Assembly (NCBI RefSeq): GCF_017642925.1
Contig: NZ_JAEPOL010000002.1
Location: 138,457 to 202,456, forward strand
Direction: 5' to 3'
Origin: Maricaulis sp.
GTDB lineage: Bacteria; Pseudomonadota; Alphaproteobacteria; Caulobacterales; Maricaulaceae
Length of the DNA: 64,000 nucleotides
Under the pieces are notes generated by a model. That model did no database searches, was not told the DNA's origin, and was given only the letters and a program-made list of their open reading frames with translations. Below are positions 19,444 through 37,745 of the stretch, piece by piece (the first letter of the stretch is position 1; each line of letters opens with the position of its first letter). Position numbers and translations under genes: made by a program.

Positions 19444-20697
19444 CTAGTGATCGTGGCTCGCGCCGGACTTCATGATGTCGGCGGTGATCAGGAAGGCGTT
19501 CTCGCTGACATAGGTCACACCTGGATCAATGCCGCCCAGGATTTCCGTCCATTCCGGTGTCTGGCGACCCAGGTCCAGCATGCGGACCTCATAGGTGTTC
19601 CCGACCTGGGCATAGACGACCGTGAAGTCGCGGAAGCGCTGCAAGGCATCCGTGCGGACGGCGAGCGGCACATCGAATTCACCCACTTCGATACGGGCGC
19701 GGATGCGTTCACCGGGTCGCCATTGGCCATCCTCATTGGGGATTTCCACATGGGCGATGGCCCGCTGGCTGGCCGGATCGATCATCGGGGAGAGGAATTC
19801 GATCTCGCTCTCCACACTGCGTCCACCATCAAAGCTGGTCACATGAACCGGCTGACCAGTCGCCACAGAGCCCAGATCGCCGGGATAGATGAAGAGTTCG
19901 GCATGCAGCTGGCTGGGATCGGCGACGACATAGAGCGGCTCGCTGCCGGTCGGACCGTTCAACGTCGCCCCGCGTTCCACCACGACACCGCTGATTGGCG
20001 AGGTGACGGAATAGGTCTGCAGACTGTCCGTGGCCGTGATGCGGGCCAGGGTCTGACCGGCTTCAACACGATCCCCGATGCTGGCATTGAGGGCGACGAC
20101 ACGCCCCGGCAGCCAGCCGCGCAGCTCGGCGCGACCTTCCGGCATCAGTTCGATCTCGCCATAGACCTCGACCGTCTCGTCCAGCGTCGCCGGCCCGGTG
20201 ACGGATACGGCAATGCCGCCTGCTTCGGCCTGTTCGGCGGAGATGGTGGTGCGGCCCTCATACGACTCATACTGCCAGCGTCCGTTCACGCCCGGCATGG
20301 AAGCTGTGACCGCCACATCGAAGGAGTGGGGTTCGGTCACCACACCATCACCGCGCAGGAAGTCTTCCTGGGGGGCAAAGGCAAAACGGTCGACCTGTCC
20401 GCCCAGACGCGTCAGTTCGATGGTGGCATTGACGCGCGAGGGATCAACCGACTGTCCGTTGAGATAAGGGAAAAGGCGGAATTCGGGATCGACCCCGTCC
20501 TCGAAAATGGTGAGTTCCAGAGCGAAATCGCCCTGGCGCAGCATGCGGCCGCGATGCGGGCCACGCTCATACTCTTCGGCTGCGGCTTCACCATGGCCTC
20601 CCCCTTCGGAGGCTTCCGGGGTGCTAGGGGAACAGGCGATCAGCATAAGTGCCGTGGAGCCGCACAGGGCGGCCGTGAAAATGTTTCGGATGGTCAT
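19444..20697 (-). CDS. czcB: RND periplasmic adaptor (CzcB-like)
   Basis: Lipoprotein-like N-terminus, GPHRGRML, SPISGVVVER, VPLAVRTDALQ; located between TolC and CzcA genes. Confidence 0.88.
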   Translation of the reverse strand: MTIRNIFTAALCGSTALMLIACSPSTPEASEGGGHGEAAAEEYERGPHRGRMLRQGDFALELTIFEDGVDPEFRLFPYLNGQSVDPSRVNATIELTRLGGQVDRFAFAPQEDFLRGDGVVTEPHSFDVAVTASMPGVNGRWQYESYEGRTTISAEQAEAGGIAVSVTGPATLDETVEVYGEIELMPEGRAELRGWLPGRVVALNASIGDRVEAGQTLARITATDSLQTYSVTSPISGVVVERGATLNGPTGSEPLYVVADPSQLHAELFIYPGDLGSVATGQPVHVTSFDGGRSVESEIEFLSPMIDPASQRAIAHVEIPNEDGQWRPGERIRARIEVGEFDVPLAVRTDALQRFRDFTVVYAQVGNTYEVRMLDLGRQTPEWTEILGGIDPGVTYVSENAFLITADIMKSGASHDH

Positions 20698-22026: not shown

Positions 22027-22416
22027 TTACAGGATCGATTTGGGAGGCCGTCTCAGCCCGTCCAATCCAGGATCAGGCTCCGGTACGACATGACTCAGGG
22101 ACCGCACCGGTCCCGTCGTTTCAGTGGCTTGCAGGTTCATGGACGCGGCCATCGGCGCACCATCCATGTGGACATGGGCATGCAGGATCACGTCCCCGGT
22201 TTCATCCGCATCGACATCCGCCGCCTTGCGCATCTTGGCCAGATCAATCTCACGATCCGATCCCCGATGATGATGCGCGTCCTCATGATCATGATCGACC
22301 GCCACATCCGTATGATGATGCTCCGCCCCGACCTCATGCGCATGCGCCTCCGTCCCGGACGCAGGCCCGAGCCAGGCAAGCATGGCAATCAGCAGAAATG
22401 TCAGAGCGTGCCGCAT
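22027..22416 (-). CDS. Secreted His-rich protein (CzcI-like position)
   Basis: Start reassigned to ATG 22416: MRHALTFLLIAMLAWLGPASG signal peptide, then HAHE..HHHTDVAVDHDHEDAHHH. Confidence 0.65.
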   Translation of the reverse strand: MRHALTFLLIAMLAWLGPASGTEAHAHEVGAEHHHTDVAVDHDHEDAHHHRGSDREIDLAKMRKAADVDADETGDVILHAHVHMDGAPMAASMNLQATETTGPVRSLSHVVPEPDPGLDGLRRPPKSIL

Positions 22417-22730
22417 AGGCCCCCGAACGGAAATCAACACACCATTAGTGCTGCCATGAGCGGAAAAGGTCAAGAATGATGGTCGGGATCGGTTGAAGCG
22501 GACCGACGACACACACCGCCTTGACCCCGGCACCGGCAGCGCACCACGATTTGGTACATGGAAATCAACAACGCGCCATGTGCCTAGTGAACACACCCAA
22601 CGTAAAATATTGAAATTTAACCACGTTAAAGAACGCAAAAAATTCGCCCGCGTTCTTTGCCTTGGCACCATGTTTGATGTGGTCGGAAGTCGCCCGGGAT
22701 GATTCGGGCGAAGCTTCATGACAGAAGAGG

Positions 22731-23504
22731 CTAGCCGGGTTCGATCCAACCGACGCCGGTTAGCTCGCTAGAAAACTCGTCAAAAAGACGGACCTCATCG
22801 GCTGTGAGCTTCCCATCTGCTGCGATCAATTGATGTGCGGTCACGAGAAATTTCTCAAGAATGATCGGAGTTTCTGCCCGGATCATCTCTATAGCCTCCA
22901 TCATCTGCTCGGTAGTTGGCCTCAAGCGGCGGTAGCTTGTTCCAAGCTCGTTGCATTCATCCAGTGTGAGATCGTCGCAAAGCTGTTCGCAATGCTGGCA
23001 GAGAATCGCGAATTCGTCGGGGTGCATATAGCCATCGCAGCGCGACAAACAGGCCAGGAGGATTGCATGTGGGCGTGCCCGCTCACGGGCGACATTGACT
23101 CTGCTCGCACGGGGGCTGTTCACGGGCCTGGGCAGTTCCGCGTCAAAGCCTAGAGTTTCCACTAAGAATGGCTTGGTCTCATGCACGACCCCGTCGAAGT
23201 CTATACAGCACTCGATTCTATCAAGCAGAAAGTGGCGTGGGGCATTTCGTTGGTGACAATGAGCGGACAAATAGGGGTTGCCTTTGGCATTGTACTTTAC
23301 TGAGTGCACCGTGATGCTGCGGCATGACATATCGTTCTTTGAATCGAGATACTCGATCATGAAGGACTGACCCTCACACTCAATTTCCCCGCCACGTGAG
23401 TCACCGATAGGCCTATCATCGACTTCAGGAATTACCGATGGGCGAGGCTCCGGCGCACCGGATCCTCCGCGTCGCCAGGCAGACAGGAAAGAGTGGCCAT
23501 CCAT
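22731..23504 (-). CDS. WYL-domain + TerB-like domain fusion protein
   Basis: IEYLDSKNDMSCRSITV...YLSAHCHQRNAPRHFLLDRI matches the WYL pattern; LLACLSRCDGYMHPDE and LIAADGKLTADE match the TerB repeat motifs. No wHTH seen. Confidence 0.7.
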   Translation of the reverse strand: MDGHSFLSAWRRGGSGAPEPRPSVIPEVDDRPIGDSRGGEIECEGQSFMIEYLDSKNDMSCRSITVHSVKYNAKGNPYLSAHCHQRNAPRHFLLDRIECCIDFDGVVHETKPFLVETLGFDAELPRPVNSPRASRVNVARERARPHAILLACLSRCDGYMHPDEFAILCQHCEQLCDDLTLDECNELGTSYRRLRPTTEQMMEAIEMIRAETPIILEKFLVTAHQLIAADGKLTADEVRLFDEFSSELTGVGWIEPG

Positions 23505-23929
23505 CGAGCACCGCCTCCAGTAGTCGAACTTGTTTCTACCTATTCGCGCAAAAGTTATTTTGTGTCCACACGCTTGCTGCGGTGGTTGGCGACTTAAATC
23601 GCTTTGTGCTGGGCCGTGCCTTGAAGGATGGGGCTGTTTGAGGGGGCTCTATTTCGCTTTCAACCACAATTGTGAACGCTCGGATCTCTTCGGCGCACGG
23701 TAACAGAGGCTGGAGGCGTGGGCCGGCTACCGACGGCCCGAGGTCGGATTGGTCCGCTTCTTCCTTGGTTCTTCGTGCAATCGATAAAGCGCACGATCAT
23801 AAAACGCTTTCCGCATCACCCTTAGGTTGGCTAAGGTTTACGCGGGAGGCGTAGGGGTTAAATGGGAAGCGCTTCAGCTCGGGCTGTATTCAAGGTGTTC
23901 GATCGTGGCGAAGAGGGGGCAAATTCGCC

Positions 23930-26437
23930 ATGAAGTCGAGGGCCACTTTCTTCATCGTCTTTAGTGTTGTGTTGCTGGCGGTATTGCCGGGGAGCATGCC
24001 GCTTGACGCCCGCCTTTTCCTATCGCTGGTCATTCCAGGCCTAGTTGTTTGGCTATTTGGGGGGAATCGCGGTGACAGGAAGTCACGCCGAACGAACAAG
24101 AGGCCAGCGTCAGCCTCTGATAACCTTTCATCGAGCACCTTTCGACAAAGATCGCCCGACAGGGCTAGCTTCAAACCGATGCAAGAACAGTCTGGCGAGA
24201 GGCCGCACTCCGTATACAAGCGCCCAACTCCGCCGGCAGACTACCGCCCTCCAAAACAAGATTATGCTGCGATAATCCGTGCCGTGCGGCGGAGCGACGC
24301 CCCACAAGACCAAACTCACGTCGCTCGCAAGCAAGCAGGCCCGATAACACGGCATCAGGGCTGGGTGCCAGCCGGTGAAACCGTTTCAGTTGGCGGACGC
24401 GATCTGGGCGGAATGATCTATGTAGGCACGCCACCATCCCTCAACACCTATGGATATCGTGATGTGTGCCGGGCATATATTGACCCATCCCTGCCAGTGT
24501 CGCCCTATGGTTCGGATCGCGATGGTTTTAATTTGCCATATTGGCCAGGGTACTCGGCCATCCCGCCAAACTGCCGCGGAACCTATCTGGACTGGCTGGC
24601 GACCGGGCGATCTGATCCGGCCTACGATCCCGGGTATATGTTCCTCTACTTTTATGGCCTCGAACGCCGCTTTTTCCTTGATGCCCCTCCCAAGAGCGAG
24701 AAGGCCGAGTTGCTTGAGGAAGTCAGGCGGTTGGCACTGCTTTATCCTGAGAACCGTTCAGTCCAACGATATCTGGGAGAGTTCATTGAGGTTGCTGAAG
24801 TCGCGGTCTTCGGCTGCGAGAACATAACGCCGAGCCATGACAACCCAGGCTGGGAACTCCCATTTTCTCTCAAGATGGGGCTTGGCGCCAAAATCGAAAC
24901 CGGGAAACCTCTCAACTCCGACTGGATCCTGAGTTGGTTGGTCTGTCATCCAGAATATGGCCTGAGAACCCCTGCGAAGCGCTGTTCGGAAGAGTTCCGT
25001 GTCCTTTTCAGACTTCGCTTCGACGATCGCTATCCTGATGGTTACAAAGTCACCAAGCCAAGAAAGTCCCTAGATGCACGCTATCGCGCCGCATCAGGCG
25101 AGTTTGATGTGAAACTTGTTACCACGCTTGATGGAAAACCGCTTCCGGATGTCTCCAATCTCCGCAAGCCCCTGGACATCGCGAAAGATCTTGCCGAACG
25201 GGCGATGGATGATCTCGACAAATACAGCCGGTATCTCGGACGAGAGCCTGACGGGCGCGGAAGTCTTGAGGCTCATGCTTTGCTACCTGCGGAGTTGCGC
25301 CCCCTTTTCCCATCTAGCGAAGTGGAGGCACTTGGATTGTGGGCAGGGGAAATCGCTGCCGCCGGAGGTCTGGTCCCCATTGCCGATGTTGTTGAGCGCT
25401 TGCAGGGAAGACGTCCCGAGAAAATATCTAAACGGGTGCTGACAAGTGCAGCTGATGCTCTAGCACGGTTGGGCTTCGGCTTGGCTCCTGATCCACGATA
25501 CGCGCTACGCTCGCCGAAGTTGGACGAGCCCGCTGTGATTTTCGAATTTGGCGGTCCAATTGAAAGTTTGGAAGACGTCTCGCCTAGATATCGATCAGCC
25601 CTGATGGAGCTGGCCGTCGCGACTTTCGTGGCTCATGCAGACGGTCGTGTCGTGGAGTTGGAACGCCAGTCCCTTGCAGACCAAGTTTTATCGGTGGAGG
25701 GGTTGAAAGATGAGGAAAGGGCACGCCTGCAAGCCAATCTAGATTGGTTTCTTGCGGTTCCGCCCGATTTGAGTCTGCTTCGGCGGCGGCTGAAGGACAT
25801 GGATGAAGAGCACCACGCTGCGTTGCGCGCATCGGTGGTTTCTGCCGCCTATGCGGACGGTATTGTCGTGTCAGAAGAGGTTTCTGGAATTGAAAAGATC
25901 TACAAGGCACTGGGGCTCGACCCAGCGCTGGCGTATTCTGATCTGCACGCCGGAAACATCGATGATCGGCCAAAAACAGTAAAAGCAGCACGGCCGGCCC
26001 TGCCAGGTGAACAGATCCCCACTGTGAATGAGATGCGTGGGGCGGCCCTCAATGCTTCGCGGATTGCGAAGATACGTTCAGACACCGAGCGCGTTTCTAC
26101 TGTTCTCGGAAACATATTTTCTGATGATGAAAATGACGAAGACGCTGCCATTTCGCATTCGCCTTCAGCTCTCGCGGGGCTTGATGTCAAGCACTCTGAG
26201 CTGATCCGCGACCTGGTGCAAAAGACTCATTGGTCAGACGAGGGCTTCCAGCAGCTTTGTGAGCGCCGCGACCTTCTTGTCGCAGGCGCCTTGGAAGCCG
26301 TGAATGAGTGGGCGTTCGAGGCACATGGCGAAGCTCTACTTGATGAGTACGATGGCTATGACGTCGCGCCGGATGTTGCTCAAGCCGTAAAGGCAGTTTT
26401 TAGGGAGGCCCAACATGCCGAAACCGAAACCGCGTGA
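23930..26437 (+). CDS. sngA: Shango SngA (TerB_N / TerB / TerB_C), with N-terminal TM helices
   Basis: YWPGYSAIPPNCRGTYLDWLATGR and GYMFLYFYGLERR (TerB_N), VAHADGRV / AAYADG (TerB), EAVNEWAFE (TerB_C); first of a three-gene operon. Confidence 0.88.
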   Translation: MKSRATFFIVFSVVLLAVLPGSMPLDARLFLSLVIPGLVVWLFGGNRGDRKSRRTNKRPASASDNLSSSTFRQRSPDRASFKPMQEQSGERPHSVYKRPTPPADYRPPKQDYAAIIRAVRRSDAPQDQTHVARKQAGPITRHQGWVPAGETVSVGGRDLGGMIYVGTPPSLNTYGYRDVCRAYIDPSLPVSPYGSDRDGFNLPYWPGYSAIPPNCRGTYLDWLATGRSDPAYDPGYMFLYFYGLERRFFLDAPPKSEKAELLEEVRRLALLYPENRSVQRYLGEFIEVAEVAVFGCENITPSHDNPGWELPFSLKMGLGAKIETGKPLNSDWILSWLVCHPEYGLRTPAKRCSEEFRVLFRLRFDDRYPDGYKVTKPRKSLDARYRAASGEFDVKLVTTLDGKPLPDVSNLRKPLDIAKDLAERAMDDLDKYSRYLGREPDGRGSLEAHALLPAELRPLFPSSEVEALGLWAGEIAAAGGLVPIADVVERLQGRRPEKISKRVLTSAADALARLGFGLAPDPRYALRSPKLDEPAVIFEFGGPIESLEDVSPRYRSALMELAVATFVAHADGRVVELERQSLADQVLSVEGLKDEERARLQANLDWFLAVPPDLSLLRRRLKDMDEEHHAALRASVVSAAYADGIVVSEEVSGIEKIYKALGLDPALAYSDLHAGNIDDRPKTVKAARPALPGEQIPTVNEMRGAALNASRIAKIRSDTERVSTVLGNIFSDDENDEDAAISHSPSALAGLDVKHSELIRDLVQKTHWSDEGFQQLCERRDLLVAGALEAVNEWAFEAHGEALLDEYDGYDVAPDVAQAVKAVFREAQHAETETA

Positions 26438-27722
26438 ACGTGATGCCATTATGCAAGCCCTCCGCGCTGGTGTTGTCCCTAAACTGGGATTGCGTCACAT
26501 CCAAGTTGGGCGCGCCCGAGAGATCGAAGAGATGATACGAGACATGAACCGTATTGCTGATCGTGGTTCGGCAATACGGTTCATCATCGGCGAATATGGC
26601 TCGGGCAAGACCTTCTTTATGAATCTGGTCAGGCTTATTGCTCTGGAGAAGGGCTTGGTCGTCATGTTCGCCGACTTGGCACCCGATCGTCGCCTGCATG
26701 CGACTGGCGGCCAGGCGCGTGGGCTATATGCTGAGATGGCGCGGAACCTGTCGACACGCACAAAGCCCGACGGTGGTGCACTTGCCAGTGTCGTGGAACG
26801 ATTTGTTTCGCAGGCCCATCGTAGCGCTGAAGAACGAAGTGTACCCACGGGGCAGGTAATTCGGGAACGCCTTGAACATTTTGAAGAGCTAACGGGTGGA
26901 TTCGAGTTTGCGGAAGTGATCCGGCGGTATTGGGAGGCACACGAAACCCACGACGACGATTTGAAATCCTCTGTTTTGCGCTGGCTGAGGGGCGAGTTTG
27001 CGACTCGTACTGACGCTCGCAAAGCACTGGGCGTGAGAACCATAATCGACGACGCAGGTGTCTATGATCATCTCAAACTCATGTCCGCATTTGCGCGGGA
27101 GGCAGGCTATAAGGGGCTCCTCGTGGGCCTCGATGAGATGGCAAACCTGTACAAGCTGACCTCGTCACAGGCGCGCAATGCCAACTACGAACAAATACTC
27201 CGAATTTTGAACGACGTTCTTCAGGGCTCGGCCGAAGGTATCGGCTTCCTTCTAGGTGGCACACCAGAGTTTTTAATGAACACGCGCCGAGGGCTTTACA
27301 GCTATGAAGCGCTTCAGTCCCGTCTCGCTGAGAACTCTTTCGCCAGAGATGGTCTGGTTGATCTTTCTGGTCCGGTTGTGCGGTTGGCCAGCCTGACACC
27401 AGAGGATTTGTTTGTGCTTCTCTCGAACATTCGCGCCGTTGTGCAGGAGGATCGGAGCGCCTTACCCGATGAAGCCTTGGAAGGGTTCATGGCGCATTGC
27501 TCGCAGCGAATTGGTGAAGCCTATTTCAGAACACCACGAAATACCGTGACGGCGTTCGTCAATTTGCTCTCCGTACTGGAACAAAACCCAGACGTGAAAT
27601 GGACTGACCTGATTGATCGGCTCGAAGTTGAAGAAGATGGCGGTGAGGACCTGGCTGACGTCGAAGACTCAGCTGGGGTGCATTCAGCACATGGGGATGA
27701 CCTCGTTAGCTTCAAGCTATGA
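26415..27722 (+). CDS. sngB: Shango SngB, DUF2791 P-loop ATPase
   Basis: ALRAGVVPKLGL, IGEYGSGKTFF Walker A, GLLVGLDE Walker B; overlaps sngA. Confidence 0.88.
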   Translation: MPKPKPRERDAIMQALRAGVVPKLGLRHIQVGRAREIEEMIRDMNRIADRGSAIRFIIGEYGSGKTFFMNLVRLIALEKGLVVMFADLAPDRRLHATGGQARGLYAEMARNLSTRTKPDGGALASVVERFVSQAHRSAEERSVPTGQVIRERLEHFEELTGGFEFAEVIRRYWEAHETHDDDLKSSVLRWLRGEFATRTDARKALGVRTIIDDAGVYDHLKLMSAFAREAGYKGLLVGLDEMANLYKLTSSQARNANYEQILRILNDVLQGSAEGIGFLLGGTPEFLMNTRRGLYSYEALQSRLAENSFARDGLVDLSGPVVRLASLTPEDLFVLLSNIRAVVQEDRSALPDEALEGFMAHCSQRIGEAYFRTPRNTVTAFVNLLSVLEQNPDVKWTDLIDRLEVEEDGGEDLADVEDSAGVHSAHGDDLVSFKL

Positions 27723-27731
27723 GGTAATCCA

Positions 27732-29915
27732 GTGAGCGGAGCGTTCGAAAAGCTTGCGTGGCCAATCCAAAAATGGATTCGCCAACAAGGCTGGCGAGAG
27801 TTGCGCGACATACAGGCGCGTACGATCCATGCTGTCTATACAGACTGCGCCAAGGACTTGATTGTCGCGGCTTCAACGGCTGGAGGGAAAACCGAAGCCG
27901 CGTTTCTGCCGCTGATCTCCCAAGTCCTCGATACTCCTTCGCAGCGAGTCGGCTTCGACCTCCTCTATGTAGGACCGCTCAAGGCGCTCATTACGGATCA
28001 GGCGGATCGCCTAAAGGATATTTGCAGCGAAGCAGAATTGTCAGTGACTCCTTGGCACGGCGACGTCTCCCAATCGATCAAAACACGTGCTTTGAAACGG
28101 CCAAGCGGAATACTGCTGATAACACCAGAGTCTCTCGAGGCTCTTTTTCTTCGGCGAGGGATGGAAATTCCGCGTCTTTTTGGGGCTACTCGGGCGGTAG
28201 TCGTTGACGAACTTCACAGCATGCTCGACAGCGAGCGTGGTGTGCAGATGAGATCACTTCTCACCCGTCTGGAACTCTCTACCGGGCGAAAGATCCAACG
28301 CGTGGGGCTCTCCGCTACACTCGGTGATATGGAACTGGCTCGCAAATATTTGCGCCCAGAGGATCCAGAGAATGTCGCATTGATCGAATCTGAGGGAGGA
28401 GAGGCAGAGCTTCAGCTCCAACTACGCGGATATACTCTTGGTGATGGCGATCAGAGCCAGTTGTCCACCACCGACGCTATTGCTGATCACATCTTTGAAC
28501 ATTTGAGAGGTCGCGACAATTTGGTGTTTGCCGGTTCTCGGCAATCTGTGGAGATCTATGCAGATCGGTTGAGGGAACGTTGTGAAAGGGAGCATCTGCC
28601 TCAGGAATTCTACCCGCATCATGCGAGCCTATCCCGTGAGCATCGGGACTTTGTGGAACGACGACTAAAGGACCCATCCAAACCCACAACAGCAGTGTGC
28701 ACGTCGACACTCGAACTCGGAATCGATATCGGGGACATATCGTGTGTCGCGCAGATTGGTGCGCCTTTCAGTGTTTCAGCGCTTCGTCAGCGACTGGGGC
28801 GTTCTGGGCGTAGGGAGGGGCAGCCAGCCATTCTGCGCCAGTACGCAATTGAAGCATGCCTTAATTCTGAAAGTAGCTTTGTTGATCGATTGCGTCTTGG
28901 ATTGGTCCGTTCTGTTGCTATGATTGAGCTGCTTCTCGAGGGGTGGTGCGAGCCGCCAAAACCCCAAGCGTTGCACCTTTCAACCTTAGTGCATCAGGTC
29001 CTTTCGGTAATCGCCGAGCGGGGCGGCGCTTCGGCTAGCACTCTCCATCGAATCTTGTGCCAGGCGGGACCGTTTAAACTGGTAAGCTCACCGATCTTTG
29101 CTGACTTGTTGCGCGCCCTTGGCGATCCGGATGTAGAGCTGCTCGAGCAAGCCGATGATGGTCAGCTGCTTCTGGGGCGAGCAGGTGAGAAGCTTGTTGA
29201 ACATTATAGTTTTTATGCCGTTTTCCAGACGCCAGAGGAGTATCGGCTGGTTGCTGAGGGACAGGAGCTCGGCACACTTCCCGTCGATAATGTTCTCGCC
29301 CCTGGCACGATGGTCATTTTCTCGGGAAGACGATGGTTGGTTCTTGAGGTGAGCGATCAGGACAAAGTGGTCACGGTAATGCCAGCCGCGGCCGGCACGC
29401 CTCCAGTCTTCGGAGGGGACCCAGGCGAAGTTCATGACACCGTCGTCGAGCGAATGTTCGCGCTTCTCGAGAGCGACTGCCAGCCAATCTATATGGACGA
29501 TGTTTCCACGACGCTTTTGAAAGAAGCTCGGCGTAGCTATGCTGAATTGGGATTTCGTTCCTGCCCGGTTTTCTCGCTTGGCGAAAAGTCCTACGCTATT
29601 GCAACGCGCTGCGGTTCGATAAAATCGGCCAGTCTCGCGCTAGCATTGCGCTCCCATGGATTTGATGTGGAGTTGCATGATGGGTTTCTTGTGGCGAAAA
29701 CACGCCAAGAAGATCACGATATCTATAAAGCGCTTCGTCAGATTGGCTCTGCCAACATCGAGGAATTTGACACGGATGGTGGCCGGCTTGTTTTCGAAAA
29801 ATTTCACCCATACTTGCCCGTAGCGCTACTCAAGGCCGATGCCCTTTCCTGCAGAATAGATTTTTCCGCGCTTCCTCAGATGTGCGATATGCTTCTGCAG
29901 CAACAGGGAGACTGA
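27732..29915 (+). CDS. sngC: Shango SngC, Lhr-like SF2 (DExH) helicase
   Basis: ASTAGGKTEA, TPESLE, VVDELH, GLSAT, TSTLELGIDIG, RQRLGRSGRR. Confidence 0.9.
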   Translation: MSGAFEKLAWPIQKWIRQQGWRELRDIQARTIHAVYTDCAKDLIVAASTAGGKTEAAFLPLISQVLDTPSQRVGFDLLYVGPLKALITDQADRLKDICSEAELSVTPWHGDVSQSIKTRALKRPSGILLITPESLEALFLRRGMEIPRLFGATRAVVVDELHSMLDSERGVQMRSLLTRLELSTGRKIQRVGLSATLGDMELARKYLRPEDPENVALIESEGGEAELQLQLRGYTLGDGDQSQLSTTDAIADHIFEHLRGRDNLVFAGSRQSVEIYADRLRERCEREHLPQEFYPHHASLSREHRDFVERRLKDPSKPTTAVCTSTLELGIDIGDISCVAQIGAPFSVSALRQRLGRSGRREGQPAILRQYAIEACLNSESSFVDRLRLGLVRSVAMIELLLEGWCEPPKPQALHLSTLVHQVLSVIAERGGASASTLHRILCQAGPFKLVSSPIFADLLRALGDPDVELLEQADDGQLLLGRAGEKLVEHYSFYAVFQTPEEYRLVAEGQELGTLPVDNVLAPGTMVIFSGRRWLVLEVSDQDKVVTVMPAAAGTPPVFGGDPGEVHDTVVERMFALLESDCQPIYMDDVSTTLLKEARRSYAELGFRSCPVFSLGEKSYAIATRCGSIKSASLALALRSHGFDVELHDGFLVAKTRQEDHDIYKALRQIGSANIEEFDTDGGRLVFEKFHPYLPVALLKADALSCRIDFSALPQMCDMLLQQQGD

Positions 29916-29933
29916 CGCGGACCGGCAGGACGC

Positions 29934-30089
29934 ATGATCAATGCGCTGGCACGCTGGGAAGGTGATCGCGCATCAGACGCCGTTGCCTGGGCGCGAACGC
30001 GCCTGGAAAGGGAACGGGACGCGCTGACGGATCCGCAGACAATCACATCCGAGATCGACAGGATCCACGAGTGGACCTATCGCGATTAG
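29934..30089 (+). CDS. Small ORF (51 aa), possibly a gene fragment
   Basis: Hand translation MINALARWEGDRASDAVAWARTRLERERDALTDPQTITSEIDRIHEWTYRD*; AGGA SD; 18 bp after sngC. Confidence 0.4.
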   Translation: MINALARWEGDRASDAVAWARTRLERERDALTDPQTITSEIDRIHEWTYRD

Positions 30090-30227
30090 TGGGCAATCGA
30101 ATGCCTCGACGTGCCGGCATTCCATTCGTCACCGATTTGGTGACGAATGGAAGTTTCTGTTTTTACGAGGTGTTTTGGGGTGTTCATGATATATATTCCG
30201 AAGAGATGAGGCAATTTCTCCGTCGGA

Positions 30228-30482
30228 GTGAAAGTCATGGATGAACGCGAGAGAATCCGCTCCAGTGTTGGTGAAATCCTGCGCGAAGAGTTTCTGGCCG
30301 AACTCGGTTGGGACGAGACGGAACTGGCGGGGCGGATCGGCGCGCCAGTTCCGGATGTCATAGCATTGCTGGAAGGTGGGCGGCTGACGGAAGCTCTGGC
30401 GCACCGTTTGGCCGAGGGCCTGGGCACGACAGTGCGGTTCTGGCTCAATATCCAGGAGAGCCATGAGCGGACCACGCCTTGA
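30228..30482 (+). CDS. HigA-like XRE HTH antitoxin (orphan)
   Basis: VGEILREEFLAELGW...LAHRLAEGLGTTVRFWLNIQ HigA signature; no HigB adjacent. Confidence 0.8.
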   Translation: MKVMDERERIRSSVGEILREEFLAELGWDETELAGRIGAPVPDVIALLEGGRLTEALAHRLAEGLGTTVRFWLNIQESHERTTP

Positions 30483-30502
30483 AGCGGTCCATGGGCCCGC
30501 AG

Positions 30503-31087
30503 TTAGTGGCTCACCAGTTCGCGCCGGAAGTCGGAGCTGAACAAGTCCTCGTTCGCTTTCGCCGGCGCCGTGCCTTCGTCCGGGTAGAGCCAAGTCCTCG
30601 CATTATCAGCGGTAAGGACAAACAGCTCCGACGTTGCCCAGGCCACGCGATCACCAACCGCCGCGGTGAAGGCCGGCTGTACTGCGCCGGGCCTGCGAGG
30701 ATCGCTCGTCGTGTACCAGTGTGCCGCAGCAAAGAAGATTTCGTTTTCCTTGCAAGCGGCCACCGACTTGTACTGCGCGATGCCTGACGGCGATGTGAGA
30801 CGTGCGCGATAGCGGATCATCGGAATAAGGGCGCGCTGTTCTGGAAACCAGTCCGCGGTAGGGTCGGGAGCCGCCGGCGGGTTGGATGCTTCAATGCCGA
30901 TCGGAAGCAGCAGTTTCTCGAGCTGTCCGCCCTTGTTGATGATGACCGGAAAGGCGTTGCCGTACGACACCGTCGTACCCATCCGCCACTCTGCGTGTCC
31001 ACGGGTATCGAGATCGATATTGCCGGCCAGGCTGAACGCCGACAGCATGACGTGCTCGTCACACATGACGAGGTGCGAAACCTCCAT
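30503..31087 (-). CDS. Hypothetical protein (~194 aa)
   Basis: Protein-like ORF; start reassigned to ATG 31087 (GGAGA-like context is ambiguous); AT-rich promoter-like region upstream. Confidence 0.55.
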   Translation of the reverse strand: MEVSHLVMCDEHVMLSAFSLAGNIDLDTRGHAEWRMGTTVSYGNAFPVIINKGGQLEKLLLPIGIEASNPPAAPDPTADWFPEQRALIPMIRYRARLTSPSGIAQYKSVAACKENEIFFAAAHWYTTSDPRRPGAVQPAFTAAVGDRVAWATSELFVLTADNARTWLYPDEGTAPAKANEDLFSSDFRRELVSH

Positions 31088-31375
31088 GGGAGATATCCTT
31101 ATCTTGACAATTTTGGGGGAATGGGTGACACCGCCACCCAACATTATCAGAATGTACACAAGTAATTGAAATTTGCAAGAAAATTATTTTACAGGTCAAC
31201 CAAACATTTCTGCCGACTACGTCGATTGTCCAAACAGGTCTGATGCGCGTCAACTTTCCACTTCGCGCCCACTCACCAAAATATAGTTTTTATGCAGTTT
31301 ACCAGAAACCTCTGCCGGCCAACACCCGCCCTCTAAGGTCTACAAATTCCTTAAGAGACTAAACAAACAAGTTAG

Positions 31376-31624
31376 TTATGCGGCTCGAAAGCCTATATGC
31401 GTCCTGCTCGCGAAGGCCCTTAAGTACTCGATCTTGCTGAAGAAGCACTCGACGGGATTACGACATCGACAAAGGAAAGGGCTGAAGCTGGGCGGGCTCT
31501 TGCGGCGCGAGACCGGCTTGATGCAGCCCCACGCGCCTTGTGATTTCAGGCTCTCACGCTGGGCGTCTGAGTCATAGGCCAGGTCAGCCAACAGGATCTG
31601 GCCTTCGCCGATGTGATCGAGCAT
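31376..31624 (-). pseudogene. IS5-family transposase C-terminal remnant
   Basis: LLADLAYDSD and RNPVECFFSKIEYLRAFASR resemble the degenerate D/E catalytic segments of IS5 (ADKGYD...RNxVERFF). Confidence 0.75.
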
Positions 31625-31642
31625 GTCGGCCGCGCGCGCCCG

Positions 31643-33688
31643 TCAGCTGACCAACACAACCACAGCTTCCGGCGGCAACACCCGCATGACCGGAATGGTC
31701 CGAGTGACGGGTGGCTCAGCAATGAGAGCTTTCCATTCAACATCCGTCAGCCCACGCTCGTTCCATACATAACCTGTGTCCGCACTCCGCAAGTTGATGC
31801 AACGGGTCAATCCCCGATCCTGGAGGTAGGCTGTGGCATTGCGAGCTCGATGGGCAGGGGAACGATCCGGAAGCACGCCTTGACTTTCATCCTCCGCCGC
31901 CAACGCCTCCGCCATGACATCCATGGATGTGGGAAGGTCGGCATTATCGAGCAAACGCCCAATGACCCCGAGGTCCAACCGCACCACGTCCAACCGAGTG
32001 TCCTCCCATTTCAGCTCGTATGAGAAGGTCCAAACGAGGTTCGCGTTATCAAGTTCGAACATCGGCCGATGTCCATTCTTCGTAACGCGATCGATGCTTA
32101 AATCGGACAGATCGATCAAGTTGGCGATCGGCCCCTCCACCGTTACCCTAATATCTCCAGCGCCCCGACCATCTTTCTGAGGACCTACAGGCGTAAGCAC
32201 AATTCGACTGACGAGTCCGCGAAGCAACTCTTTAGCGCGCGCAGCTTCCGCCTCGTCAGCCTGAAGGTCTGTGGTGAGGCCATCAATGGTGTCAGAGATC
32301 GCAGCGATAATCTCATCGGTCTCGCCGAGGGGCATCGGTGGTGGCGTACGCTGGATCCGGGTTTCCAGCTGCCGCTTGTCTGCGCCAAGCTGATCCAGCC
32401 TCTTGATTAGCATTTCGCTTGCGTATGAAGTCTCGCGCGCGCTGGAGAGCTGGTCCATCAGATTGCTGATACGAGTTTCAACATCCTGAAGAGAGGCGGT
32501 CTGGTTCCTAAGCCTTTCTGCTTGGTCCGCATGCGCGCGCTGGACTTCATCGCGAAAAGCATCAAGCGCCGGCCCGAGCACAACCGCGTCCAGGATATGC
32601 TGTTTAATTTTTTGAAAGACGGTTCCCTCGACGACATCTCGGAAGACCCGCCGCGTATTTGTGCATATGCCCTTATCGCGCCGTCCAGTACACAGATACT
32701 TCCCATCAGACACGATCGCCGTTGATCCGCACTCGCCACAATACACCATTCCACTGAATGCAAAACGGTTTCGCTTTTTCCGGAAGAATGGCCGATCCAG
32801 ATGTTCTGCGAGACGCGCCTGGTTTCGATCCCAGAGTTCTTGGTCGATGATTCTTAATTCGGGGTGATTCGAGATCAGCCTTTCCGCTTCGGATTTATAC
32901 GTCATTTTTACTTCGCCCTTGCGCAGGCGACGGTGGGTTTTTCTGAATTGAAACTGGCCGATGTAGATTGGGTTTCTCAGAATCCCACTCCCGCCCTGGC
33001 GATTGCCCAGGAGAGCGCCTGGCCTCCAGAGTTTACCCTTGGGGCTGGGGACGCCTTCAGCATTCAGGGTCTTGCAAATCTCGAACGTAGTTCGGCCTGC
33101 GTCGAACTCAATGTGAATTCGCCGAACAATCGAGGCCTTATCAGGGTCTATCTCACGGAGACCATTGATAGGCTCCCCGCGATCGTCAAACCTGGCAACC
33201 TTACGGTAACCGTAAGCGACCGAGCCTGACATACGCCCTTGGCTAATAGCGAGCTCCTGACCGCGTTTGGATTTTGCAACGTTCTGCTTGATGAATTGCT
33301 GGTTCTGAACGGCCTTAAAGGCGAGTTCGATATCAGAAACGACACCACCGCTGACCGTACACAGAACCACTTCAAGCTCTTCAAGTTGCTTAGCAATAAA
33401 GTGCATGTCGGAGGCATCGCGACTGGCGCGATCAATGTCCTCGACGAGGAGAACGTCAAACTCTCCTAGTTCGGCCGCCTGCAACATCTTGAACAAGCCG
33501 ACCCTACCTTGTGTCGTGGTTCCTGAACGTTCGGCATCGCTATAGCGTCCAGCCTCCCGCCAGCCACGTTCAGCCGCGTAATTTGCGCAAAGGCGCTCCT
33601 GGCCCTCAATTGAGCTCTGGCTTTGTCTGTCAGTCGAGTAACGGCTGTAGAACGCGACCCGACTACCGTGTGGCGGCATACTTTTCAT
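31643..33688 (-). CDS. Large serine recombinase (resolvase + recombinase + Zn-ribbon + coiled coil)
   Basis: VAFYSRYSTDRQ catalytic Ser, EDIDRASRD, AYGYRK, NPIYIG, FSGMVYCGECG..YLC..C; extra C-terminal region of about 150 aa. Confidence 0.92.
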   Translation of the reverse strand: MKSMPPHGSRVAFYSRYSTDRQSQSSIEGQERLCANYAAERGWREAGRYSDAERSGTTTQGRVGLFKMLQAAELGEFDVLLVEDIDRASRDASDMHFIAKQLEELEVVLCTVSGGVVSDIELAFKAVQNQQFIKQNVAKSKRGQELAISQGRMSGSVAYGYRKVARFDDRGEPINGLREIDPDKASIVRRIHIEFDAGRTTFEICKTLNAEGVPSPKGKLWRPGALLGNRQGGSGILRNPIYIGQFQFRKTHRRLRKGEVKMTYKSEAERLISNHPELRIIDQELWDRNQARLAEHLDRPFFRKKRNRFAFSGMVYCGECGSTAIVSDGKYLCTGRRDKGICTNTRRVFRDVVEGTVFQKIKQHILDAVVLGPALDAFRDEVQRAHADQAERLRNQTASLQDVETRISNLMDQLSSARETSYASEMLIKRLDQLGADKRQLETRIQRTPPPMPLGETDEIIAAISDTIDGLTTDLQADEAEAARAKELLRGLVSRIVLTPVGPQKDGRGAGDIRVTVEGPIANLIDLSDLSIDRVTKNGHRPMFELDNANLVWTFSYELKWEDTRLDVVRLDLGVIGRLLDNADLPTSMDVMAEALAAEDESQGVLPDRSPAHRARNATAYLQDRGLTRCINLRSADTGYVWNERGLTDVEWKALIAEPPVTRTIPVMRVLPPEAVVVLVS

Positions 33689-33693
33689 AGAAT

Positions 33694-33894
33694 CTAGTCC
33701 TTCTCGGGTTCATCGCCCTTAGGGAGAGCGAAGTACGTCCTCGCCGATAGGCGAGCGATTGCGATTGATAGCGGCATCAGACTCGCAGAGAGCGGATCCA
33801 TAGACCTGCTCAATTCAGCCTCTTGGCGCTGACGACGGTTTTGTTGAAGCGTCTTGAGGATACGGTGGCTGCTGAGCTCAAGATCGGGTGCCAT
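33694..33894 (-). CDS. Small hypothetical protein (66 aa) upstream of the recombinase
   Basis: GGAG SD; its stop lies 5 bp before the recombinase ATG. Confidence 0.55.
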   Translation of the reverse strand: MAPDLELSSHRILKTLQQNRRQRQEAELSRSMDPLSASLMPLSIAIARLSARTYFALPKGDEPEKD

Positions 33895-33910
33895 CGTTTT
33901 GTCTCCGTAC

Positions 33911-33944
33911 TTTTTATCGGCAAAATCTATTAGTCCGATAAAAA
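33911..33944. promoter_or_regulatory. Inverted-repeat operator in the divergent promoter
   Basis: Perfect 10-bp arms TTTTTATCGG-N14-CCGATAAAAA between the 33894(-) and 34016(+) starts. Confidence 0.6.
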
Positions 33945-34015
33945 ATCGTCAACTTAGATTTTGATATATATCTTCCCTCTGCTAACTGCTTCGTGGTTCA
34001 AATGAGAACGAGGGT

Positions 34016-34582
34016 TTGGCTCTTGTGATTTTACAGTTCGAACAGAGCATCCACGGGCCGGCTCGCATCGCCGAGATGACTGGCCTCTCTATGGACGGAC
34101 AGAGGAACTGGCGACTGCGCGGCCACCTCCCGCCCAGCGACGGGCCGAGAGGGAAAATGACAAGCTCTGCAGTCGCTGCCTTGGCAGTCCGTTCGTCTGC
34201 TGCTGATCTAGGCTTTCCCGCCAAAGACAGCGCGTCCTTAGGCGAAACAGCAGGACCAAGCGTTCTCTACTCAGCGCTCTTGGACTTTCCTCAAGCCGCC
34301 ATCCAACTGATCGGATCACCCGACAACAAGAAAGCGTTCTGGAAGGCGTTCGAAGACAGTACGCATCATGCCGGACTTATCTCCGGGCTCGGACCTCAAC
34401 AACCATCGTCGGCGATATGCTGGCACGACAACGATCCACCCAGATTACTACCAAATCCAAACTCAGGCCTCGTTGAAGGCTATGAAGTGACTTTTCGCCA
34501 AATCAGTCTTCCAGGGGTGGGGGCGAGGCTTGTCCGGTATGCAGGGCAGCCACTTTTCACCGTCCACATTTCAGACGCTTGA
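34016..34582 (+). CDS. Hypothetical protein with MerR-like N-terminal HTH
   Basis: PARIAEMTGLSMDGQRNWRLRGHLP resembles the MerR-type HTH (A..TG.....RNW..RG.L). Confidence 0.55.
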   Translation: MALVILQFEQSIHGPARIAEMTGLSMDGQRNWRLRGHLPPSDGPRGKMTSSAVAALAVRSSAADLGFPAKDSASLGETAGPSVLYSALLDFPQAAIQLIGSPDNKKAFWKAFEDSTHHAGLISGLGPQQPSSAICWHDNDPPRLLPNPNSGLVEGYEVTFRQISLPGVGARLVRYAGQPLFTVHISDA

Positions 34583-34583
34583 T

Positions 34584-34796
34584 TTAGTCGAGGAATGAAC
34601 ACTCAGACGTAGAGACGCATTTCAGGGCTTCGACCCACTCCAAAAGGTCAACGATATCGTAAGCGACGCGGCGCCCGATCTTGACGAAGCGAGGCCCGCC
34701 ACCAGTAAGGCGAAGCTTGTTAAGATAGCTGGCGCTGAGATTGAAGCGTTCGGCGACTTGAGCCGTGTTGAGCAAGTTGGGCGTAGAGGCAGTCAT
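34584..34796 (-). CDS. AlpA/excisionase-like HTH protein
   Basis: LLNTAQVAERFNLSASYLNKLRLTGGGPRFVKIGRRVAYDIVDL. Confidence 0.88.
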   Translation of the reverse strand: MTASTPNLLNTAQVAERFNLSASYLNKLRLTGGGPRFVKIGRRVAYDIVDLLEWVEALKCVSTSECSFLD

Positions 34797-34924
34797 TGTT
34801 CATCCTATTCCTTGCAATCGCAGGGAACGCGATCGTTAAGGAGGAGTAAGCCAAATTTTCAGACTCTTATTACCCCCTCAATAAACTGCCTTGGGTAATT
34901 CCCATTCATGCTCCGAAGGGGGCG

Positions 34925-36016
34925 CTAGCTTTTTTTCGGCGGACGCCCTGGCTTCCCCTTACGGCTCCGCGCCATAAAACGACCCTCCGATTCCCATTCT
35001 AAAAATTTATTGCGAAATTGCTCATACTTAGGGAGTGAGGCAGATAGCTCTCCAGTGCGCTGAGCCTCCATGATCGCGTCATAGATCTTCTCGAGCCCCA
35101 GGTTGCGCATTGTCGGCATGTTTTCTGCAAGCCAACTGATAGCGGCGGCATACCAACGGGCCTCCGCTTCCTGCTTACGGAGCTGTCCTTCATAGTCTCC
35201 TTTGCGCTGGCGAGTCTCTTGAGTTTGGTCCCACTGTTCAACGTGGGATGCGAAACGACGCGCTACAAACTCTGCTGAAGCTGCACCTGCATCGTACGAT
35301 GCTCTTAGGGCGTCCAGAACAAAGTCTCTGGCGGAACCACTCCCAATAGCCTCGCGGACTTCTTCCAAAGCGCGCAAGAGCGCGCTCACAGCAAGGGCCC
35401 AGTGAATTGGGGCTCCCGGAGGAAAGCGTTCATAGAATTTGGGGTTAAATTTAACACTTCCCCACGTATCGCTGGCCGGCTTTTGATGGGTCTTGCCTTC
35501 GGATGAAACCGCACGAGCGACCGTATAAAGCGGATCTCCCGGATAATGAGCCGCAATACAAGCTCCATGTGGCACGTACGCCCAACATAACGCCTCATTC
35601 CGCCAAACCCACGCTAAAGCTAGCTCCGTGGATGCATCGCCAAAGCTAGGAAAATTATAAGCTTGGAAGATCGTATTGATCGCGTCTGAAGCTTCGGCGC
35701 GGCCTTCCGCGCTCTGAAAGTCTGCGAATTCCCATCGTTGATACATCAATTGTAAAACTTGGGCGCCATCAGCATCGGCGTGGAGACGAGCGCCTACTTG
35801 GTCAAAGCCTTTCCCCATAACCAGCGCGTCAGATCGCGACCGAACCTGTTTGAAGTCGTCCAGCAACCAGCCATGCTCGCCTTCATTCAGAGAAAGCTCC
35901 GCCCAAGGTGGTGGTGGCATCTCCAGCGTTGTTTCGACGGATGTACGCGTTTCATGCCATGCGGCATCAAACTCGACCTCGCCACCGATTAGGACCCTGG
36001 GTGCGTCGTCATCCAT
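34925..36016 (-). CDS. Hypothetical protein (363 aa), basic AT-hook-like C-terminus
   Basis: Long ORF between the integrase and AlpA genes; ends in RKGKPGRPPKKS. Confidence 0.7.
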   Translation of the reverse strand: MDDDAPRVLIGGEVEFDAAWHETRTSVETTLEMPPPPWAELSLNEGEHGWLLDDFKQVRSRSDALVMGKGFDQVGARLHADADGAQVLQLMYQRWEFADFQSAEGRAEASDAINTIFQAYNFPSFGDASTELALAWVWRNEALCWAYVPHGACIAAHYPGDPLYTVARAVSSEGKTHQKPASDTWGSVKFNPKFYERFPPGAPIHWALAVSALLRALEEVREAIGSGSARDFVLDALRASYDAGAASAEFVARRFASHVEQWDQTQETRQRKGDYEGQLRKQEAEARWYAAAISWLAENMPTMRNLGLEKIYDAIMEAQRTGELSASLPKYEQFRNKFLEWESEGRFMARSRKGKPGRPPKKS

Positions 36017-36088
36017 TCAATCAATCTCTTTACGCAATCAGTCGATAGATTGACGAGCTAAGCTTTCTTGATGAAGCCGTGCTCAATG

Positions 36089-37339
36089 TCACCTTCCAGC
36101 GAGCGCTGCAGCGGCAGCGTCTGAGGTTGCTAGGGCAGCCTGCCTAACGGGGTCGTCAGCCAAATGAGCATACTGAGCCGTAGTCTTCACATCCTTGTGT
36201 CCGAGTAACTTGCCAATCAGAGGCAGAGACTGTCCGTCAGCTGCTGCTAAGCTTGCATATGTGTGCCGCAAGTCATGAAGCCTCACCTCAGGCAAACCCG
36301 CCTGTTCACGCACTCGATTCCAAACCTTTGGCGTGCCCACATAGTGTCGATGCTTTTCTCTCGGGTTTTCTATGAGCTGGCGCTCAGCTGGAAAGACAAA
36401 AGGTGATGTCGGATCCCGTTCCACACCCTGAAGCACTTCCAGAGCGGCCGGCCCGATAGGAACCACTTTTGCACCTGTCTTAGAGTCCTGCAGCAACAAC
36501 CGACTTCCAGAGACATCTACCTCACTCCACCGCAAACCCTCGATCTCGCTTTTTCGCGCACCCGTTAGAATTAAGAGCCGAATGATCCCACGCCCTTTGG
36601 CGCTAAGGTCCTGCTGAAGCAGCGCTGCGCCTACTCGACCGAGTTCTTCAGATGACAGGTATCGTTGTGAGCTGCCGTCCTTAAAACGCTTAACGCCATG
36701 AACCGGATTGTCTGAGCGCATCTTCCGCTTCATCGCGAATGTGAATATCGCTCCCAAAAGCCCCGTCGTTCTGGTGGCCGTACCTTTACCCCCACGGGCA
36801 ACAGGATCTGAGCGACGTCGGGTGCCTGTTCCTTTGACAGCAGTCTTCCCCTCCGCCACATCTCTAATAAAGCGCTCAATATCGGCGGATGTCACAGTGG
36901 AAACAGACTGCTTGCCAAGAAGAGGTTTTATGTGGCGCTCGATCCTCAATCGGTCTGTCGCGAGAGTTGACTCCTTTTTCGTCGCCGCGCCCTCCACAAG
37001 GTAGAGATCACAAAGCTGAGAGACCTTAAGCTCGGTTCTAGAACGGCTTCGCTCTTCGCGCGGATCCACACCCAATTGAGCCTGACCAAGGAGACGCTTC
37101 GCCTCGCTCCTGGCCTCATCGGGTGTGAGCTTACCATGCTGTCCAATCGTGTATTCCTGCCAAGGAGCACCTCGCCCGCCATGCCCGAGACGATAACCAA
37201 TGATGTAGACCTTCCTCCCCTTGGGAGACACTCGAAGTCCGAACCCGGAAAGGTCGCTATCCCAGAGCCTGTATGAAGCGGATCCCGGTACGGCTGCATC
37301 GATCGTACGTTTTGAAAGCCTCACCTTGCCGGCTGACAT
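36089..37339 (-). CDS. Tyrosine recombinase/integrase 2 (Arm-DNA-bind_3 type)
   Basis: WDSDLSGFGLRV; catalytic TGARKSE, DSKTG, HDLRHT, GH, QYAH; start reassigned to ATG 37339. Confidence 0.95.
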   Translation of the reverse strand: MSAGKVRLSKRTIDAAVPGSASYRLWDSDLSGFGLRVSPKGRKVYIIGYRLGHGGRGAPWQEYTIGQHGKLTPDEARSEAKRLLGQAQLGVDPREERSRSRTELKVSQLCDLYLVEGAATKKESTLATDRLRIERHIKPLLGKQSVSTVTSADIERFIRDVAEGKTAVKGTGTRRRSDPVARGGKGTATRTTGLLGAIFTFAMKRKMRSDNPVHGVKRFKDGSSQRYLSSEELGRVGAALLQQDLSAKGRGIIRLLILTGARKSEIEGLRWSEVDVSGSRLLLQDSKTGAKVVPIGPAALEVLQGVERDPTSPFVFPAERQLIENPREKHRHYVGTPKVWNRVREQAGLPEVRLHDLRHTYASLAAADGQSLPLIGKLLGHKDVKTTAQYAHLADDPVRQAALATSDAAAAALAGR

Positions 37340-37484
37340 CAGCGCCTCCATTATCCAGCACATTTCCAGCACAGCAAGGTGAAACGCAGGAAACCTCCAG
37401 CAAAACCATGCCAGCTTTAACCCGTTATTTATAGCAATATTGGACCCCATGGTAGGGAGGGAAACTCCAGGAAACACACTTCTT

Positions 37485-37534
37485 CTGCCCTCCGAAGGCA
37501 GAGGTCAGAGGTTCGAATCCTCTTGGGTGCGCCA
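37485..37534 (+). repeat. att site: 3' part of tRNA-Arg(CCG), direct repeat copy 2
   Basis: CTGCC-CTCCGAA-GGCAG anticodon stem-loop (CCG), T-arm and CCA; 37488-37534 is identical to 12764-12810; 5' half of the tRNA absent. Confidence 0.92.
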
Positions 37535-37537
37535 CTC

Positions 37538-37745
37538 TTCCTTTGTTCCCGCTCCGCTCGACCCGGGCCTGTCATCGCTTTCAGCGTTGGGGTCGATGCT
37601 CACATGGAACGCGCTCAGGGCTGTGGGGTTTGGACTCGATCGCGTCGGGCCCGTCATCTTTCCTTTGTTCCCGCTCCGCTCGACCCGGGCCTGTCATCGC
37701 TTTCAGCGTTGGGGTCGATGCTCACATGGAACGCGCTCAGGGCTG
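37538..37745. repeat. Tandem duplication of an 86-bp hairpin-forming unit (37538-37623 and 37660-37745)
   Basis: Two identical 86-bp copies with a 122-bp period, read directly from the sequence. Confidence 0.9.

Follow-up and report, generated by a model that had tools for sequence, protein, structure and literature searches.

A ligand-sensing role in defence systems has been predicted for the WYL domain, and its combination with a TerB domain already appears in the catalogue of Makarova et al. (2014; PMC4012209), who cite Anantharaman et al. (2012). That catalogue contains the same two-domain combination as the gene described here, but it only lists the fusion, and neither defines a family nor describes genomic context or function; it is the only paper that we found in the literature on WYL with TerB or with Shango. 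TerB itself has been proposed in published work to act in membrane surveillance, and the three-gene Shango operon is known from published work to be sufficient for defence when cloned alone. Here we analyse a WYL-TerB gene in a 64,000-nucleotide stretch of Maricaulis sp. DNA (hereafter the window), where it lies beside a Shango operon, sngABC. An earlier note on this DNA had proposed that the gene encodes a fourth Shango component and marks a distinct subtype. It is probably an autonomous, ligand-sensing WYL-TerB accessory gene that is carried as separate cargo of an integrase-bearing island, and not a regular component of Shango, because the members of its family, a large one made up of stand-alone genes, almost never occur beside this system.

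The N-terminal half of the protein contains a WYL domain. Residues 45-98 match the Pfam WYL model (PF13280) above threshold (29.8 bits against a curated cut-off of 21.8), and the conserved columns of the barrel in an 80-member family alignment are Y52, R62, R86, R90, F92, R93, D95 and R96. In an AlphaFold2 model based on seven homologues (mean predicted local distance difference test score, pLDDT, 73), a mostly disordered stretch of about 40 residues is followed by a five-strand barrel and a six-helix C-terminal half; the strands fall in residues 38-101 and the helices in residues 131-249. The barrel has the Sm/SH3-like fold of solved WYL domains: Foldseek matches it to the regulators BrxR, CapW, PafBC and DriD at probability 0.95-1.0.

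The C-terminal half is TerB-like. Here the window protein scores below the curated cut-off of the Pfam TerB model (PF05099; 17 bits against 24.4 over residues 147-244). We consider this sub-threshold call confirmed at the family level, because several relatives pass the cut-off (P0008 at 35.9, P0010 at 28.1, P0029 at 37.3, P0102 at 27.0, P0130 at 39.6 and P0155 at 28.6 bits), the characteristic motifs are conserved, the fold is matched and the domain aligns with that of the window's own SngA. The motifs are two copies of DGxxxxxE (D157/E164 and D230/E237), in which D157, D230 and E237 do not vary across the 80-member alignment and E164 is kept in at least 90% of its members. Foldseek pairs the helical half of the model with 2h5n (probability 0.94), which we take to be a TerB-like fold, and hhalign places both motifs in register with those of the SngA TerB domain (E = 1.3e-4, 15% identity). 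Judged from this alignment, the two TerB domains are homologous, not close. A TerB helical domain with paired DGxxxxxE motifs is common to the WYL-TerB protein, SngA and the TerB defence proteins Bunzi BnzA and Dionysus DinB, but the WYL-TerB protein differs from SngA in having no Pfam match to TerB_N or TerB_C and no membrane segment.

These profile and fold searches bear out the earlier note's reading of a WYL-like N-half and a TerB-like C-half. It was also right that the protein has no winged helix-turn-helix (wHTH) or other DNA-binding domain: the Pfam scan of the protein recovers no helix-turn-helix (HTH) family, none is present in the model, and the 44 residues ahead of the WYL barrel are mostly predicted to be disordered (pLDDT below 50 in residues 13-38). 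Nor is there a WCX dimerisation domain, the C-half being TerB-like by Pfam, Foldseek and hhalign alike. A search of solved structures by sequence returned weak WYL matches only and no TerB entry, and PADLOC assigns the open reading frame (ORF) to generic WYL models only. The start codon is probably placed correctly, because the N-terminal 40 residues are kept in the closest homologues; the sequence GGAGG lies 9 nucleotides 5' of this ATG.

Two details of the protein may be recorded here. Residues 20-32 of the N-terminal tail comprise a proline-rich motif followed by LPxxDD, with D29 conserved in at least 90% of the aligned family, and this LPxxDD-like motif of a disordered tail could be a docking peptide. 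Residue 67 (window 23304-23306), inside the WYL barrel, is His in the window protein and Arg in the cluster representative P0001, to which it is 99.6% identical.

The extent of the family depends on how it is searched. A word-indexed search finds only seven clusters (52-59% identity). In an exhaustive profile search the number of cluster representatives is 1457 at an E-value of up to 1e-3, 626 at up to 1e-10 and 101 at up to 1e-30. With few exceptions these representatives are 250-290 amino acids (aa) long, have both domains and are matched by the profile from end to end. On this sequence evidence the WYL-TerB fusion is not rare; it constitutes a large family of stand-alone genes of about 260 aa. 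None of ten family members scanned against NCBIfam matched a model. Of 401 genomes in a sample of the window's class, Alphaproteobacteria, 29 have a member, and an even sample of the whole phylum adds just two matches outside that class, both partial and covering the WYL half only. The family is therefore mainly alphaproteobacterial. A few relatives have N-terminal extensions; in the representative P0102 (387 aa) the extension is a fragment of a DEDDh exonuclease (RNase_T) that precedes the WYL-TerB portion.

Linkage to Shango is nearly absent from either side. We gathered WYL-TerB loci from the class sample (20), metagenomes (28), viral sequences (12) and relatives of the window's genome and of genome G368 (8), and searched the family loci by tblastn, using the window's and G368's Sng proteins as queries. 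Adjacent sngABC genes are present in one of 71 other WYL-TerB loci (about 45 of which have useful flanks), namely locus L116 of G368. The closest relatives, at 52-59% identity, are not beside Shango: P0002 and P0005 are flanked by a glyoxalase and an AAA ATPase in a chromosomal stretch, P0004 adjoins a 2013-aa DUF4011/AAA_11/AAA_12 helicase in a defence island, P0006 adjoins an HTH_3 gene and an integrase in a prophage-like element, and P0003 is on a short contig.

Searches that start from Shango give the same picture: no WYL-TerB gene is present in the 80 closest SngA loci (49-58% identity, flanks of up to 6 kilobases (kb)), either by tblastn or by the family hidden Markov model run on six-frame ORFs, a procedure that detects the positive controls and picks up the SngA TerB domain weakly. 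The cargo 5' of sngA in these 80 loci is varied and includes an SbcC-like ATPase, Fic, HipA, an OLD nuclease, ParB_N and APH. SngA is found in nine of the 401 class-sample genomes, and WYL-TerB accompanies it only in the window's genome (G000) and G368; the seven other Shango-bearing genomes have no WYL-TerB gene. Nor is there one within about 9 kb in fourteen further Shango loci of the same order, seven of which fall in G368's SngA clade. Overall, a WYL-TerB gene is nearby at just one of about 100 other Shango loci, that of G368, and linkage amounts to about 1% of loci in either direction. The phylum-wide census provides no further co-occurrence data, full-length family matches being confined to the window's class. 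Linkage to sng operons was the survey that the earlier note had named for its proposal of a fourth component and distinct subtype, and in contrast to the domain assignments this part of the note is not supported by it as a general rule.

The family instead recurs in prophages and in islands of other kinds. Clustering of neighbours across 31 family loci recovers no shared partner, only the WYL-TerB gene itself. Among the 150 ORFs that lie up to two places away from the gene (positions -2 to +2) in 38 loci, the most frequent domains are HTH_3 (9) and Peptidase_S24 (6). CI-type repressors with HTH_3 and S24 peptidase domains lie directly beside the WYL-TerB gene in six loci (L140, L154, L155, L156, L157 and L162), and an HTH_3 protein does so in L004; these seven loci form one clade of the family tree. 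The repressor gene is co-directional and just upstream in L155, L162 and L004, and it is convergent in L140, L154, L156 and L157. Twelve viral or proviral contigs carry a WYL-TerB gene. Other members have defence-type neighbours that match Mokosh, Hhe, PDC-S37, PARIS-like or MADS-like systems, and a deep clade in small genomes adjoins DAHP synthase, Mfd or SHMT. The recurrent pairing with a CI-type repressor in prophage immunity regions may constitute a separate system. Two prophage loci also have a stand-alone TerB-like ORF, about 160-180 aa long, near the WYL-TerB gene (L156, 5950-6432, minus strand; L163, 13908-14444, plus strand), and both ORFs match the C-half of the family profile (E of about 1e-7).

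The genes rexAB of phage lambda, which lie beside cI, are "moron" genes of the prophage immunity region that are expressed in the lysogen. The WYL-TerB prophage clade is similar in that it adjoins a CI-type repressor, and in three loci it is co-directional and just downstream. There is no sequence relationship between rexAB and WYL-TerB.

The domains, the family and its lack of linkage to Shango rest on the searches above, and from these features the ligand, partner and phenotype of the protein can be inferred. By analogy with DriD and CapW, whose WYL domains bind single-stranded DNA (ssDNA) according to the titles of their Protein Data Bank entries, the barrel with its conserved Tyr/Arg surface may bind single-stranded nucleic acid or a nucleotide-like ligand. 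The signal would then be passed on via the TerB helical bundle through contact with a protein or the membrane, not through transcription, because the protein has neither an HTH nor a catalytic domain. The two conserved acidic DGxxxxxE motifs of the bundle are probably metal-binding. A role in phage-host or phage-phage conflict appears most likely, because members of the family recur beside prophage CI-type repressors and others reside in defence islands; examples would be an exclusion or alarm function expressed in the lysogen.

Several observations weigh against a full separation of the gene from Shango. The WYL-TerB gene of G368 is also head-to-head with sngA, and the WYL-TerB and SngA proteins of the two loci have strongly diverged (26% and 35% identity, respectively); the identity is 65% for SngB and 43% for SngC. 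In a maximum-likelihood tree of 47 family members the two Shango-adjacent copies are far apart, and each has a non-Shango sister (support of 95/90 for the window copy and 100/100 for that of G368). Because these well-supported branches separate the copies, the adjacency to sngA has arisen twice independently. About 0.1 such juxtapositions would be expected by chance in the order sample, a rough estimate from the observed frequencies that involves no formal test. Only two class-sample genomes have both genes, and both have them adjacent. A contact between WYL-TerB and SngA is also conceivable, given that each carries a TerB domain. If WYL-TerB is a facultative Shango accessory, it would sense phage ssDNA or RNA and tune SngA by TerB-TerB or other contact, and the four-gene loci would be a minority subtype that was assembled more than once; the shared GC content and shared island of WYL-TerB and sngABC, together with the homology of their TerB domains, fit this explanation. 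It has to accommodate linkage that is so rare in both directions, however, as well as unlinked sisters of both linked copies, a TerB identity of just 15%, a three-gene Shango that works alone, and linked operons in which no part is obviously missing (SngA with full TerB_N, TerB and TerB_C, SngB and SngC). The recurrence of the divergent layout is suggestive and does not outweigh the linkage of about 1% both ways, and we regard such an accessory as possible, though unlikely. Block inheritance of all four genes in the window and G368 was considered and rejected, since the closest SngA and WYL-TerB relatives are unlinked in each lineage; the nearest SngA relatives are not beside a WYL-TerB gene.

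The prophage loci allow a different explanation, in which the gene is a lysogeny or counter-defence factor of phages and mobile genetic elements. Expressed in the lysogen, it would modulate CI-controlled induction by sensing ssDNA, or it would be a TerB decoy that dampens TerB-based defences, and the window copy would be a remnant of mobile-element cargo. The position directly beside CI-like S24 repressors in at least six prophage loci, co-directional downstream or convergent, agrees with this, as do the 12 viral contigs and the place of the window copy as the outermost gene of an integrase-bearing island. The window island has no repressor beside the gene and no phage structural genes, however, and the deep clade that lives among housekeeping genes is difficult to reconcile with such a role, which we consider quite improbable. 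That the protein is a transcription regulator of the island, acting on the 425-base-pair (bp) divergent region, is far less credible again. Divergence from a defence operon is the typical arrangement of BrxR and CapW, and these share the WYL barrel fold with the window protein, as do PafBC and DriD. These regulators have an N-terminal wHTH and a C-terminal WCX domain, whereas the window protein lacks both, has TerB in place of the WCX dimerisation domain and presents mostly disordered residues ahead of its barrel, so the way in which these regulators work, repression or activation through DNA binding, is not available to it. Most family members, moreover, have no divergent operon partner.

The separate accessory gene that we favour is cargo of a low-GC island (GC, guanine plus cytosine), whose features are collected in the table together with those of the Shango operon.

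Table 1. Coordinates of the WYL-TerB gene, its domains and the surrounding features (window numbering).
Feature	Position	Strand	Description
WYL-TerB gene	22731..23504	-	257 aa, ATG start; Pfam WYL and TerB; member of a broad stand-alone family
WYL domain, five-strand beta-barrel	23211..23372	-	Residues 45-98; PF13280; conserved Y52, R62, R86, R90, R93, R96
TerB-like helical domain	22773..23066	-	Residues 147-244; two DGxxxxxE motifs
Divergent intergenic region, WYL-TerB gene to sngA	23505..23929		425 bp, head-to-head
sngA	23930..26437	+	835 aa; hydrophobic extension at the N-terminus, followed by TerB_N, TerB and TerB_C (Pfam); PADLOC SngA E = 9e-89
sngB	26415..27722	+	435 aa, BrxD-like ATPase; PADLOC SngB E = 8e-172; Pfam BrxC_BrxD
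sngC	27732..29915	+	727 aa, DEAD/Lhr-like helicase; PADLOC SngC E = 7e-267
Low-GC genomic island	22400..37600		Carries the WYL-TerB gene and sngABC; about 15 kb; from composition profile
Large serine recombinase	31643..33688	-	Pfam Resolvase, Recombinase, Zn_ribbon_recom; inside island
Tyrosine integrase	36089..37477	-	Pfam Phage_integrase, Arm-DNA-bind_3; far edge of island

The island has a GC content of about 0.55, whereas the TonB-receptor genes and the czc operon that flank it have values of 0.64-0.66; per gene the values are 0.54-0.56 within it and 0.66 for the czc gene. WYL-TerB is its outermost gene, and it also holds sngABC, the serine recombinase, a putative transposase fragment and the tyrosine integrase. 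No tRNA gene was found between positions 20000 and 40000 of the window, and a comparison of the two island borders showed no direct or inverted repeat of more than 11 nucleotides. Only five of 37 genomes of the window's genus carry a family member, with the others at different loci, which is why we regard WYL-TerB as accessory, mobile cargo. Copies identical to that of the window occur in ten marine metagenome contigs, all of which represent the same locus and are not independent. These copies vary 3' of sngC (L006 versus L007): one variant has an IS66 element (TnpA/TnpB/DDE), and the other has a large serine recombinase, as in the window.

Smaller ORFs accompany these genes. Between sngC and the serine recombinase there are an 84-aa ORF (30228-30482, plus strand) that by eye resembles an XRE/HigA-type antitoxin and has no Pfam match, and an 82-aa ORF (31376-31624, minus strand) that looks, by eye only, like a transposase fragment. 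On the chromosomal side of the island border, just upstream of a czc-type OEP/CzcB/RND efflux operon, a gene at 22027-22420 (minus strand) encodes a small His- and Asp-rich, secreted-looking protein without a Pfam match.

The sngABC genes of the window form a complete, bona fide three-gene Shango operon, in which sngA and sngB overlap by 23 nucleotides and sngB and sngC are 9 nucleotides apart. The head-to-head arrangement of WYL-TerB and sngA across about 425 bp that the earlier note described is correct, and the gap is exactly 425 bp. A scan with a sigma-70-like promoter consensus gives no match inside this region, and promoter and terminator matches taken together (22300-24100 scanned) are not more frequent than in shuffled sequence. 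The first 145 residues of SngA (23930-24360) include an extension of about 140 aa at the N-terminus, in which two hydrophobic segments, FFIVFSVVLLAVLPG and LFLSLVIPGLVVWLFGG, resemble membrane helices. The PADLOC SngA model match begins only at residue 121 of this protein, and some gene callers choose a later start that gives 690 aa. The extension is conserved, with most of 80 relatives aligning from residues 4-7 onward, and its sequence suggests that SngA proteins of this kind may be a membrane-anchored Shango clade.

The Shango locus of G368 (L116, G368:C7, 1-14312) has a setting of its own. It is a compact defence island with a ThiF-JAB fusion, sngCBA, WYL-TerB and an Hhe-like gene, the last encoding a 1143-aa protein with PD-(D/E)XK, RNase_H-like and superfamily 1 (SF1) helicase regions that matches PADLOC Hhe.

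A broader view of the family, which we offer as speculative and rather improbable, is that WYL-TerB is a portable ssDNA/RNA alarm module whose WYL barrel detects ssDNA or RNA derived from phage or damage and whose TerB domain plugs the signal into whichever partner is its neighbour: SngA in two Shango islands assembled independently, a CI-type repressor switch in prophages, or a fused DEDDh exonuclease in longer relatives. If this were true, the module would be a protein-level, contact-acting counterpart of the transcription-acting regulators of the BrxR/CapW type. A dedicated infection sensor for Shango would have been a valuable find, and the survey shows that WYL-TerB does not fill that role in general. 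What it reveals is a sizeable, uncharacterised family that lives in prophage immunity regions and in defence or mobile islands of Alphaproteobacteria, a habitat that makes it a reasonable candidate for a new phage-conflict gene that stands alone.

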